Shown: positions 21,186 to 25,001, counted from the stretch's first letter. The stretch is DNA of 34,330 nt from an uncultured Rickettsiales bacterium (GCA_964439415.1 CAYTOJ010000001.1:3680-38009); one strand, 5' to 3'. Numbers and translations are program-made. The notes: generated by a model from the letters alone, not told the origin.

Positions 21186-21360
21186 AACTCCCCAGGTGGT
21201 CTGCTGTCGTAAATATACATTGCTTGTCTCCCCCACCGCGAGCATAGGGGGATTAAGGGGGAGGAATGTGTTGGTACTACGGGAAGAAGAAAGATCCCCC
21301 CCCCTAGCCCCCTTTGTGCCCGGTGGGGGAAGCCGAGAGGCAGTACCGATACTTGGGCAG
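21186..21360. repeat. Family-B G/C-tract element, long copy, with internal 10-bp inverted arms and a C9 tract
   Basis: It shares TTGCTTGTCTCCCCC and CATAGGGGGATTAAGGGGGA exactly with the reverse complement of 34251-34300. Arms TCCCCCACCG (21229-38) and CGGTGGGGGA (21321-30) are inverted. The C9 tract is at 21296-21304. Outer boundaries are approximate. Confidence 0.6.
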
Positions 21361-21368
21361 TTAAAAAA

Positions 21369-21971
21369 TTATTTAGAAAGCCCATTGATTTTTTTGCTGA
21401 GCAGTTCATTAAGCTTGGCTATACCACCCTGATTCAGCACTGAAGAAAATTCTGAGCGCTGCGTGGTAAGCAGGCTTACGCCTTCAACTACCATGTCCAC
21501 TATTTTAGGTGCGCCGTTATTATTATACACCCGGTAGTTAACGCTGATAGGCGCTTTTCCTGGCCGTTCAATCTGCGTGCTTACCACTTGCTGCCCGTCC
21601 CCCTCAGCTCGAACATTCAGGATTTTAAAACCCACGGATGTATAATCCTCAACCCGTGAAGTGTAGGTAAGGAGCAGAAACTGGCGGTAGAGATTTATAA
21701 ACTCCCGGCGCTGTTCTTCAGTTGCGCTACGGTTGAAACGCCCAAGCACATATTTACCAACCCAGTCAAAATCCACGGAATTATTGATGATCTCGCCCAG
21801 CGCCTGCCTTTTCTGCTGCGGTGTAGAATCCTTTTTAGAGACAGCTTCCACGGCCTGCCTGCCAAGTTCACTCACGAACTGTCTGGATGCATCACCGTCG
21901 CCTTGAGTATTGGCGAGAGCAGAGGTTGAGAACGTCAGCAGAAGTACAAAAAACGCGAAAAACCTATTCAT
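21369..21971 (-). CDS. mlaC: Phospholipid-binding periplasmic protein MlaC/Ttg2D family
   Basis: 200-aa ORF with a signal peptide and Tgt2/MlaC-type sequence (DFDWVGKYVLGRFNRSATEEQRREF, Y.....Y, VDMVVEGVSL..T.R.EF). Confidence 0.82.
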   Translation of the reverse strand: MNRFFAFFVLLLTFSTSALANTQGDGDASRQFVSELGRQAVEAVSKKDSTPQQKRQALGEIINNSVDFDWVGKYVLGRFNRSATEEQRREFINLYRQFLLLTYTSRVEDYTSVGFKILNVRAEGDGQQVVSTQIERPGKAPISVNYRVYNNNGAPKIVDMVVEGVSLLTTQRSEFSSVLNQGGIAKLNELLSKKINGLSK

Positions 21972-22136
21972 TGATCTAAACCCGATAGTTTAACAAGTAA
22001 CCTTAGATAGCAGCATCATACCGCCTATGCATCAAAAAAACTGCGGCTTGTCCATGACGCTATATTGAAAAATTACTTCCTAAGTCGTAATAATATTTTT
22101 ACAATGATATGTATATAATGTCCTTCAGGGGAATTA

Positions 22137-22391
22137 ATGTCTGATCTGGAAAAGGAAATAACCGTATATAATAAGCAACTGCCATCCTTGCTTAAGGATG
22201 AAGGTAAGTTTGTTGTTATTTATGGCGAAGATATAATAGGCGTCTACAGCGCTTATGACGATGCTTTAAAGGCTGGGTATGAAAAAGCGCTTCTAAATCC
22301 TTTTTTAGTAAAAAAAATCAGAGGTACTGAATTAATAGCGCACTTTACGAGAGAAATAATCCCCCGTGCCTCACATAACAGCGATAATTGA
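22137..22391 (+). CDS. Small hypothetical protein (84 aa), antitoxin-like size, first gene of a two-gene cassette
   Basis: AGGGGA lies 5 nt upstream of the ATG. The core EGKFVVIYGEDIIGVYSAYDDALKAGYE..LLNPFLVKKI is conserved-looking, but I could not assign a family with confidence. It overlaps the next ORF by 26 nt. Confidence 0.6.
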   Translation: MSDLEKEITVYNKQLPSLLKDEGKFVVIYGEDIIGVYSAYDDALKAGYEKALLNPFLVKKIRGTELIAHFTREIIPRASHNSDN

Positions 22392-22818
22392 GGGGCATGG
22401 CCCCGTCATTACGGCATATATCGGCCTAAGCTTTCATAGGGCTACGGCTATGCGTTCTGCTGGAAAAACTGTTCCCAATTTCCTGCCATGTAATTTATTA
22501 ATAGATACAGGGGCGAGTGCAACTTGTGTGGATATAAGTTTGATTAGAGCACTTAGTTTAAGTCCAACGGGAAGCAGTCCTATACACACCCCATCCACCG
22601 GCTCCACCCCGCACTTCGTGAATACATACGATATATCATTGATTATCCCGGGGAATGGAAATACCTCCGGGCAACCAAAAGTCATCGAGGCTCTACCCAT
22701 AATGGAGTGTAATTTTGAAACACAATCTATAGATGGTCTTCTAGGCAGAGATGTGCTTTCACAGTCAAGGATGATATACAGCGGCCATGATGATATGGTA
22801 ATGCTTAGTATTATTTAG
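22366..22818 (+). CDS. Retropepsin-like (clan AA) aspartic protease
   Basis: 150-aa ORF with a GTG start. It has the catalytic LLIDTGASATCVD motif and the C-terminal IDGLLGRDVL motif typical of single-lobe bacterial retropepsin-like proteases. Confidence 0.75.
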   Translation: MPHITAIIEGHGPVITAYIGLSFHRATAMRSAGKTVPNFLPCNLLIDTGASATCVDISLIRALSLSPTGSSPIHTPSTGSTPHFVNTYDISLIIPGNGNTSGQPKVIEALPIMECNFETQSIDGLLGRDVLSQSRMIYSGHDDMVMLSII

Positions 22819-22819
22819 C

Positions 22820-22855
22820 TATACCTACCGCACTTCAAGAGTGCGATTAGGTATA
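22820..22855. repeat. Family-A palindrome copy (possible terminator between convergent genes)
   Basis: Sequence is TATACCTACCGCAC-TTCAAGA-GTGCGATTAGGTATA followed by TCTTTTATGTTTCTTC. It fills the 41-nt gap between the protease stop and the ntrY stop. Confidence 0.75.
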
Positions 22856-22859
22856 TCTT

Positions 22860-25001
22860 TTATGTTTCTTCTATAGCAAAAGAAGCTTTTGCGCCGCCTT
22901 GGGGCTGGTTCTCAAGTTTCAGTTCGCCGCCGTGTTCCTCGATGATTTTTTTCACTATGGCCAGCCCCAGCCCTGTACCTTTTTCCTTGGTTGTAACATA
23001 CGGTTCGGTCAGGCGGTGCATCATGTCCTGCGGGTAGCCCCTGCCGTTATCGCAGATTTCAACACGGCAATGATGATCTATTACTTGTATGCTCATATGG
23101 ATTGCAGGAGAGAAATCCGCGCCGCGCATGGCCGCTTCCTCAGTCAGTGCTTCCGCCGCATTTTTCAGCAGGTTGGTAAACACCTGGCCGATATGCCCTT
23201 CATCCCCTTCAATTATAATTTCAGGCTCCGCAGCTTCTAAATGAAATGCTACTTCCGGGGCGGCGGTTTCCTGAGTGAAAATTGAGCGGCGGGCGAGGCC
23301 AACGATATTAAACGCCTGCTTGCGCGGTGCTGGCATTCTGGCAAAGCCCACGAATTCCTCAACCATCCGGCCTATATCCTTCACATGGCGGGTTATGGTG
23401 TCGAGGTATTTATTGAAGCTTTCTTTCTCCTCATGCAGCGTTGGCTCAAATTTACGTTTGAGTCGCTCCGCCGAAAGCTGGATGGGGGTGAGCGGATTCT
23501 TCATTTCGTGCGCTACCCGCCGCGCAATATCCGACCATGCCGCGCTGCGTTTGGCACTCACCAGACCTGTGATATCATCGAAAGTGATAATAGCGCCGTA
23601 AGGCTCGCCTTTAGTTGCATCCGGGACTGCACGCACCAGCAGCATAATCACCCGCCCGGCGCGGTTCAGGGTTATCTCCTGCTCCTGCCTGCGCGCTTTG
23701 GAAGCCGCGTCTCTCGCTATTAACGAGAATTCCGGTAATATGTCAGCCAGATTAACCCCTTCAAATGAGGCTTCCTCAAGCCCCAGGATATTACATGCCT
23801 GTGGGTTGATCAAAGTGACACCAAGATTATGATCCAGCGCAATCACCCCGGCGGAAATGCCTGACAGCACTGTTTCAATAAAAAAACGCCGCGATTCTAA
23901 CAGATGGTTGGAATCCATCAGTTTCTGCCTTTGCTCCTCAATTTCCGCTGCCATGCGGTTGAATGAGCGCGCCAGGTTGGATATTTCATCCTTCCTGCTG
24001 CCTACCTCAATACGCGCCGTAAAATCACCATCCTTAATCTTCTCCGATGCGATGATGAGCTTACCAATAGGGCGGATAAGCTGACCTGAGTATTTAACGC
24101 CATAATGCACGGCCAATAACACCATCAGCACTGAAAACATGGTGAACAGCACTAAAACCTTACGCTGCAACTGTTCAATCCTGCTTTTTACCAGTACATA
24201 TTCAGCTACTGCGCCTTTAGCGCCCTGCATGTATTCTAAAACCCTGGCATCTATAAAACGCCCCGTGACCAGGTAAGTATCCGCACTATCCAGCGCCACT
24301 ACGGCGCGCACCCTGTCCCCCTGCTCGGCAGGCAGAACCGCAACCTCCCCTTCCCTCGCCTTATCGAAAGCCTCCCTGGGCAATTGATCAAAACTGAGTG
24401 AGAAGCTTAAATCAGTCTGCGCGATAATTCTGCCGCCGCTGATTACCACCGCTTCAGTGAGGGAACGCAGTGCCGCCTGGCCTGAGACAATACGGCTGAA
24501 GAATTTGGGATTGCTGTAGGCCATACCGATTTCCCGGTTAAGGTCGCCCGCCATGGCAGTTGCATCCGCCCGGAGTATCTCCACATGCTCCTTAAGGTAT
24601 GCCTCCGCTACTTCGGTAGAGCTTTCCAGCGCGGTGGAGACCCGCTCATCAAACCAGCTTTTTATGCCGTAGTTAAAGAATATGGCGGAGAATATCGTGA
24701 CAATCGCCGCCGGAAGCAACGCCACCAGGCAGAAACGCGAAATAACCCGGCTTTGCAGGCTGCCGCCCGCTATCCCGCGCCTGACTCCCGCCATCATCCG
24801 CAGTATGTTATATAAAAGTAATGCAGATAGCGCGGCGATAAAGAAAACATCCAGCCAGATCAGTTTATCAAGCCTCGCCAGGGCGGACTGGCTGGGAACA
24901 CCACGGCTATGCAGCGCGTAGAACGTTATCACCGCTGAACATACTGTGCCTGATGTCAGTACCAGCGATACTACTTTAGGAATTTTATAGGCTGCTATCA
25001 T
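22860..25001 (-). CDS. ntrY: Sensor histidine kinase, NtrY-type (TM-HAMP-PAS-HisKA-HATPase)
   Basis: 713-aa ORF with N-terminal TM helices, a HAMP domain and a PAS domain. The H-box AWSDIARRVAHEMKNPLTPIQLSAERL is characteristic of NtrY. N and G boxes are present (NLLKNAAEA, DNGRG, GTGLGLAIVKKIIEEHGG). Confidence 0.87.
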   Translation of the reverse strand: MIAAYKIPKVVSLVLTSGTVCSAVITFYALHSRGVPSQSALARLDKLIWLDVFFIAALSALLLYNILRMMAGVRRGIAGGSLQSRVISRFCLVALLPAAIVTIFSAIFFNYGIKSWFDERVSTALESSTEVAEAYLKEHVEILRADATAMAGDLNREIGMAYSNPKFFSRIVSGQAALRSLTEAVVISGGRIIAQTDLSFSLSFDQLPREAFDKAREGEVAVLPAEQGDRVRAVVALDSADTYLVTGRFIDARVLEYMQGAKGAVAEYVLVKSRIEQLQRKVLVLFTMFSVLMVLLAVHYGVKYSGQLIRPIGKLIIASEKIKDGDFTARIEVGSRKDEISNLARSFNRMAAEIEEQRQKLMDSNHLLESRRFFIETVLSGISAGVIALDHNLGVTLINPQACNILGLEEASFEGVNLADILPEFSLIARDAASKARRQEQEITLNRAGRVIMLLVRAVPDATKGEPYGAIITFDDITGLVSAKRSAAWSDIARRVAHEMKNPLTPIQLSAERLKRKFEPTLHEEKESFNKYLDTITRHVKDIGRMVEEFVGFARMPAPRKQAFNIVGLARRSIFTQETAAPEVAFHLEAAEPEIIIEGDEGHIGQVFTNLLKNAAEALTEEAAMRGADFSPAIHMSIQVIDHHCRVEICDNGRGYPQDMMHRLTEPYVTTKEKGTGLGLAIVKKIIEEHGGELKLENQPQGGAKASFAIEET

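Follow-up and report, generated by a model that had tools for sequence, protein, structure and literature searches.

A small gene followed directly by the gene of a retropepsin-like aspartic protease forms a two-gene module that is patchily distributed and mobile. The copy studied here lies in a 34,330-nt stretch of DNA from an uncultured Rickettsiales bacterium, and the whole of that stretch is referred to below as the window. An earlier note, made from the sequence alone, had read the two genes as a candidate toxin-antitoxin (TA) or defence-like module. The overlapping gene pair itself was confirmed, while this first interpretation was only partly supported. We propose that the pair is a type II TA-like module in which the small partner restrains a cytoplasmic aspartic protease, a reading that we judge about evenly balanced between right and wrong and for which we infer binding, inhibition, toxicity and trigger. 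The points that speak for it are the conserved coupling of the two genes, an active-looking enzyme, an asymmetric linkage, mobility, the presence of several copies in one genome and a conserved tail in the partner. Against it stand the lack of a DNA-binding fold, of an enrichment in defence genes and of any copy in a cultured phage.

The two proteins

The pair consists of ORFs of 84 and 150 aa that overlap by 26 nt, with boundaries exactly as the earlier note had placed them (Table 1). The good Shine-Dalgarno sequence that it had reported before the shorter ORF, AGGGGA at 4 nt from the ATG, is there, and so are both motifs that it had reported in the longer product, DTGA and IDGLLGRDVL. Homology searches at E ≤ 1e-3 returned 71 homologues of the protease and 28 of the partner. 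Since both ORFs have conserved homologues, they are genes and not chance ORFs.

Table 1. Features of the gene pair and of its flanks (positions counted from the first letter of the window)
Feature	Position	Strand	Remarks
mlaC (MlaC)	21369-21971	-	flanking gene
Candidate sigma-70-type promoter, TTGAAA-18 nt-AATAAT	22065-22094	+	10/12 match; in the AT-rich region 5′ of the pair, GC 0.34
Shine-Dalgarno-like AGGGGA	22127-22132	+	4 nt 5′ of the partner ATG; read off the sequence
Small partner gene	22137-22391	+	ATG start, 84 aa, pI 5.6
Conserved partner tail motif, E-L-I-A-H-F-T-R-E-I	22329-22358	+	residues 65-74; column conservation, 122 distinct sequences
Retropepsin-like aspartic protease gene	22366-22818	+	GTG start, 150 aa, conserved N-terminus MPHxT
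Catalytic D47-T48-G49-A50	22504-22515	+	invariant among 59 aligned family members
T-P-S-T-G	22588-22602	+	residues 75-79; T75 nearly invariant (n = 59); T75, P76 and T78 invariant in the 12 closest
G-L-L-G-R-D-V-L, second retropepsin signature	22735-22758	+	G-R-D/N helix region; 59-sequence alignment
REP-like palindrome	22817-22858		between the protease gene and ntrY, which converge; -18.1 kcal/mol, z -5.1
ntrY (NtrY)	22860-25001	-	flanking gene

The HMM search of the 150-aa protein that the earlier note had proposed matched two of the Pfam models it named, Asp_protease_2 (PF13650) and gag-asp_proteas. The score against PF13650 was marginal, 25.1 bits for a cut-off of 24.3; this domain is carried by most homologues of the protease, and the paralogues in the same genome score 36-40 bits. 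Matches to Pfam were limited to these two models and RVP. The catalytic motif region reads LLIDTGASATCVD. In the AF2 model, the T-P-S-T-G segment sits between two strands at the position of the retropepsin flap, to which we provisionally assign it. Inside the second signature, G127 and L131 are invariant and L125, R128 and D129 nearly so (n = 59), with R128 and D129 each present in at least 90% of the 59 protease sequences; GLLGRDVL aligns with IIGRDAL of the HTLV-1 protease. Among solved structures, the family profile matches HTLV-1 protease and Ddi1.

AF2 modelled the protease as a single-lobe retropepsin beta-barrel (pLDDT 94.8, pTM 0.87). When this model was compared with the PDB using Foldseek, Rickettsia ApRick (5c9f, TM 0.70) and FIV protease (TM 0.73) were recovered with a probability of 1.0. 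No signal peptide or membrane segment was found in the protease, whose maximum 19-residue hydropathy is 1.25 and whose first 8 residues contain no K or R. Because there is neither a hydrophobic segment nor a signal-peptide-like N-terminus, it is reasonable to regard the protein as a cytoplasmic enzyme that requires dimerisation. The Pfam, AF2, Foldseek and hydropathy results thus agree with the earlier description of a single-lobe retropepsin without a secretion signal. Judged from the invariant DTGA, the nearly invariant GRD and the confident predicted fold, the protease looks catalytically active.

A family search of the 84-aa partner, also proposed in the earlier note, found a conserved family comprising 2,923 clusters (50% identity) at E ≤ 1e-3, of which 838 remain when the threshold is lowered to E ≤ 1e-10. 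No Pfam or NCBIfam entry matched it, and searches of Pfam, NCBIfam, PADLOC and PHROGs gave nothing significant by which the family could be named. Comparison with the PDB, by sequence profile or by fold search, produced no meaningful match. Neither Pfam and NCBIfam nor the PDB profile and fold searches revealed an HTH, RHH, AbrB, Phd or other DNA-binding signature. Since no DNA-binding fold is recognisable in the partner, there is no indication of the autoregulation that type II antitoxins typically exert; a DNA-binding, autoregulating antitoxin is not required in every TA type. The AF2 model of the partner (pLDDT 74) predicts a long N-terminal helix (residues 3-21), a beta-beta-alpha-beta core (strands 25-29 and 32-37, helix 40-51, strand 57-60) and a poorly predicted C-terminal tail.

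Confidence in this tail is low, with a mean pLDDT of 57 for residues 61-70 and of 48 for residues 71-80, yet its sequence is conserved. The consensus across the family is E-x-[VI]-x-[FY]-[FIV]-[ST]-R-x-[LIV], and over 122 distinct partner sequences E65 is found in 89%, S/T71 in 95% and R72 in 96%. Divergent partner subfamilies have their own internally conserved hydrophobic tails, for instance PALTLGILRA or LPASxxY..HA. Antitoxins have disordered C-termini and, by analogy, a tail that is conserved yet modelled with low confidence and specific to each subfamily fits a cognate-specific interaction segment. The partners of relatives end in a conserved Cys-His/Pro-Thr, which we considered as a functional motif and rejected, as this end is the conserved ATG-CCN-CAY (MPHxT) start of the protease gene read in the other frame.

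The partner resembles DUF5678 (PF18929) in size and in a GK[FWY]V.I...g...G core, and differs from it by an extra N-terminal helix and by the conserved tail. A Foldseek search of BFVD with the partner model, whose pLDDT is only 74, returned two Pandoravirus proteins annotated as DUF5678 (TM 0.54-0.60, probability 1.0, E ~0.01), and among predicted viral structures an unnamed 80-aa protein showed 31% identity and a TM of 0.68 to the partner. The DUF5678 HMM did not match the window partner, nor any protein in the whole genome at E ≤ 1; a few relatives of the partner gave faint matches (E 0.0012-0.1), the best of them at 19.0 bits for a cut-off of 23.2. Membership was rejected, since the window protein and its 28 close homologues all fall under the Pfam cut-off. 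The partner may be described as DUF5678-like in its predicted fold, a weak resemblance, and not as a member of that family.

No fusion of partner and protease was found among the longest members of the partner family. Several of these proteins, 174-222 aa long, contain two tandem copies of the domain (P0115, P0152, P0156, P0142, P0163, P0209 and P0215). In P0228 (264 aa) and P0220 (165 aa) the partner domain is fused to an unannotated helical N-terminal extension, and the extensions of both have a common '...RGEL.D.S...' segment just ahead of the domain.

Linkage of the two genes

Linkage was analysed from both directions. Starting from the protease, in a sample of 51 metagenome loci and 24 IMG/VR loci, the partner was located directly upstream in 61/61 testable core-family proteases. 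The same position was found in 3/3 further genomes among the 401 Acidobacteriota genomes sampled, and 3/3 look-ups by exact protein gave the same partner-protease arrangement. Starting from the partner, we examined species-representative genomes, in which the 79 loci sampled cover at least ten phyla. Results showed 57 intact adjacent pairs, one pair with an IS between its genes, 11 loci in which the protease is missing and about seven in which it is disrupted (frameshift, stop, IS3 insertion or truncation); three of the protease-less genomes have no family protease anywhere. Several of the loci sampled from the protease also hold a broken protease beside a full-length partner. An intact family protease without partner was not seen in the loci sampled from either direction. 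The tight coupling that the earlier note had read from a single locus therefore extends to a synteny of the two families that holds essentially everywhere (61/61 from the protease, 57/79 intact from the partner).

The spacing of the two genes was counted where they are adjacent and the alignment of the protease begins at its residue 1. The extremes are an overlap of 25 nt and a gap of 13 nt, one mis-called outlier excepted, and overlaps of 13 nt and of 1 nt are the commonest. The loss of the protease can be followed in three loci situated between a citrate synthase and a MacB gene, with DNA 99% identical and partners 100% identical: compared to L007 (4256-4699), L006 and L008 carry an in-frame deletion of 177 nt that removes protease residues 3-61, DTGA included. 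In L007, partner and protease share one reading frame, with a stop codon and a single further codon between them.

IS elements were observed inside or beside the module at L044 6111-7627, at L076 6247-7488 and at L034 5051-5899 and 6444-7427. The IS cases seen comprise an IS3-type element interrupting the protease, a transposase between partner and protease, and transposases flanking an orphan partner.

This one-sided dependence is the pattern predicted by a toxin with its neutraliser, and it is less readily accounted for by an enzyme that simply has a cofactor. The asymmetry compares differently ascertained samples, and the broken proteases may reflect neutral decay of the larger gene. Strict co-occurrence taken by itself would be just as likely with an obligate cofactor or with a dedicated substrate. 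Such a pair, non-toxic and with a cellular function outside conflict, would have the partner as a processed precursor, a chaperone or an activator of the protease, and it is the alternative that survives best, though we hold it to be unlikely. Strict co-occurrence together with translational coupling would follow from it directly, and the hydrophobic conserved tail of the partner, which resembles a retropepsin cleavage site, the lack of a DNA-binding domain and the mostly housekeeping neighbours would also agree with it. For a mere substrate or activator, however, it is odd that intact partners occur in protease-free genomes and beside inactivated proteases. There is, moreover, no third conserved gene to use a processed product, and a rare and patchy distribution on plasmids and prophages, with several divergent copies per small genome, is atypical of a housekeeping pathway.

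Distribution, related systems and candidate mechanism

Members of the pair occur in at least ten phyla. The protease was found in 0/40 relatives of the same order as the host, and about 1% of the 401 sampled Acidobacteriota genomes carry the protease family. The only match of the plasmid search was pNYY1_5 of Methylobacterium radiotolerans, which carries the pair annotated as 'hypothetical protein' and 'aspartyl protease family protein'. Copies in prophages are placed between tail genes and integrase, or near the gene of a head-tail connector, and no copy of the pair was found in cultured-phage genomes. Flanking genes vary from locus to locus. The earlier note had envisaged an enrichment in defence islands, which was not borne out: the 110 ORFs closest to the pair at 37 loci are for the most part unrelated genes with housekeeping roles, with a few transposases and HNH nucleases and one methylase, and no defence or TA family recurs among them according to Pfam, where only the IS1 transposase does (5 ORFs). 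Some loci of the pair adjoin HigBA-like or ParE/antitoxin pairs.

In the IMG/VR phage contig L193 (6010-9043, minus strand), the pair adjoins a block of three genes encoding 601, 74 and 336 aa (phrog_5467, function unknown) and has a head-tail connector gene nearby. This block may be another accessory or defence cassette.

The host genome (1.9 Mb) contains three divergent partner-protease pairs in all, and the partner profile recovers the two paralogous partners, on contigs C35 and C120, with E values of 5.5e-6 and 3.5e-5. Both additional pairs are strongly diverged; the second is at G000 contig C35:7563-8332 (L010 1196-1911) and the third at contig C120:3304-4009 (L011 1471-2161, minus strand). 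The C120 pair has as its immediate neighbours a ParD-like antitoxin and a ParE-like toxin of 68 aa that looks truncated. A fourth retropepsin-like gene (130 aa, DSGA) is situated on contig C78 (L012 366-758, minus strand), immediately 3′ of fusA. It has a 69-aa ORF after it instead of before it, and no partner of the window type was found there.

The vicinity of integrase or repressor-like genes in some prophage copies, and the order of a regulator gene followed by a protease gene as in immR-immA, would also agree with a mobile-element switch of the ImmR/ImmA or LexA kind, gated by a protease that cleaves the small regulator on a signal. We consider this improbable, since neither HTH, RHH nor any other sign of DNA binding was seen in the partner, most copies stand alone as islets amid housekeeping genes with no element to regulate, and the window copy sits between mlaC and ntrY.

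Comparison with type II TA systems (ParDE, HigBA, Phd-Doc) gave likenesses at several levels. The module shares with them two small, overlapping and co-directional genes with the putative neutraliser first, a patchy and mobile occurrence (chromosomes, plasmids, prophages), genomes with several divergent copies and the proximity of other TA pairs. As in those systems, orphan 'antitoxins' are common while orphan 'toxins' were not seen in the sampled loci, and the C-terminal segment of the upstream protein is conserved but predicted to be disordered. Unlike in type II TA systems, the effector would be a retroviral-type aspartic protease, and the partner shows neither a known antitoxin fold nor a domain that binds DNA. 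To our knowledge, proteases of this type are not a known class of TA toxin, and neither the effector class nor the partner fold matches a TA family found in the literature searched. The statement of the earlier note that such pairs have no characterised function agrees with our search, as no description or function of the pair was found in the literature covered.

Among known proteases, Rickettsia APRc/ApRick (5c9f) and Pseudomonas RimB and RloA have in common with the window protease a single-lobe clan AA fold, the DTG motif and an expected homodimer. RimB we take to represent Pfam family PF05618. All three differ from the present protease in that the latter is always accompanied by a small partner, and ApRick, in addition, is membrane-associated whereas the window protease has no membrane segment. 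According to one report, Pseudomonas RloA is secreted by means of a signal peptide and RimB acts with the ATP-grasp enzyme RimK (PMC12239564). Unlike RloA, the window protease has no signal peptide. Its assignment to the RimB/RloA type was rejected on this ground, on the lack of RimK or RloBC neighbours and on its match to Asp_protease_2 and not to PF05618.

We also compared the pair with the PADLOC candidate defence system PDC-M08. The PDC-M08B models gave weak matches, through the retropepsin core, to 34/59 members of the protease family (best E 1.4e-6); the window protease scores E 7e-4 and a paralogue E 5.7e-7. With the PDC-M08A models, a threshold as loose as E ≤ 10 still gave no match among the 28 partner proteins. 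With the B component matched at superfamily level and the A component unmatched, PDC-M08 was rejected; no publication on this system was found in the literature searched.

The TA-like reading would involve the following steps. The partner and protease genes would be co-transcribed and translationally coupled. The downstream product would be a cytoplasmic aspartic protease of retropepsin type, whose active site needs dimerisation, and the upstream product a small DUF5678-like globular domain with a hydrophobic, subfamily-specific tail that is unstructured alone. The partner would bind its cognate protease through this tail, either as a pseudo-substrate in the cleft or by blocking dimerisation, and would thereby keep the protease silent. 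If the partner were lost, outpaced or degraded, the free protease could cleave cellular or phage proteins and growth would stop. Loss of the carrying element, stress and phage infection are possible triggers, and the outcome would be either the stabilisation of the carrier plasmid, prophage or islet or the abortion of an infection. In a broader and more tentative form, which we regard as possible though doubtful, the pair would represent a widespread, unrecognised TA or abortive-infection class, composed of a latent cytoplasmic retroviral-type aspartic protease and a DUF5678-like neutraliser whose cognate pseudo-substrate tail makes it a consumable 'decoy substrate' antitoxin. We know of no TA type that uses such a decoy-substrate mechanism.

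If true, these proposals would add aspartic proteases as a new catalytic class of TA or defence effectors and would introduce a new principle of neutralisation. They would also provide a first function for a partner family of ~2,900 clusters without Pfam entry, and a cellular role for those bacterial retropepsins that are free-standing; how these relate to the proteases of retroviruses is a matter of long debate. With its 84 + 150 aa the system is compact. It is present in the cultured Methylobacterium radiotolerans (pNYY1_5) and Paraburkholderia sp. BCC1885, and it is amenable to standard toxicity-rescue assays and to existing aspartic-protease inhibitors.

Setting of the window copy

The earlier note had described the pair as compositionally distinct, with its own AT-rich promoter region, ending in a palindrome and inserted between mlaC and ntrY. 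Each of these claims stood in part. The hand counts of G+C on which the first was based are exact (46/120 in the pair, 32/60 in gyrA) and the shift is real: GC content is 0.418 in the pair (0.373 in the partner gene, 0.444 in the protease gene) vs 0.478 in the genome. It is modest, nonetheless, at the 6.8th percentile of 682-nt windows of the genome (sd 0.039), and makes a weak argument. As for the promoter, one candidate is present in the AT-rich spacer before the pair (Table 1), but the number of sigma-70-like matches 5′ of the pair does not exceed that in shuffled sequences.

The hairpin at the end of the pair is real. It is imperfect, about 43 nt long, and belongs to a family of which 62 contigs of the genome carry at least 82 copies that are 35 nt or longer. 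Dispersed over the host genome in this way, it counts as a REP-like host repeat and not as part of the cassette. The word depth in the source metagenome shows a spike at 22818-22918, and the palindrome family gives 30- to 40-fold spikes. In its position between two convergent genes, the palindrome could be a bidirectional terminator.

With regard to the insertion, none of the 40 relatives of the same order has the protease. A clean insertion is not demonstrable. In none of 12 relatives were mlaC and ntrY adjacent; they were on different contigs or far apart. As the two genes are never neighbours in the relatives checked, there is no empty site for comparison, and the site is better described as a synteny break. 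In the freshwater metagenome that was the source, independent contigs run across both junctions of the pair (21757-22167 and 22619-23097), and no alternative joint at these junctions was found in contigs of the source sample.

That the window copy is a decaying remnant, or cargo that hitch-hikes in this genome and no longer has a function, is quite improbable and the least favoured of the alternatives. The GTG start of the protease and the extreme C-terminus of the partner, which differs from that of relatives by a frame change, make expression of this copy less than certain, and decay is seen at many other loci. No RNA run searched contained this stretch of DNA. On the other hand, each ORF has its full length with all invariant family residues kept, the tail motif E65...F70-T71-R72 is intact and the Shine-Dalgarno sequence is good.

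Elsewhere in the window, the spacer between ribF and mlaC shows a second spike of depth at 21202-21403 (150-180 vs ~4), and one contig of the source sample skips positions 21237-21320 in this spacer.
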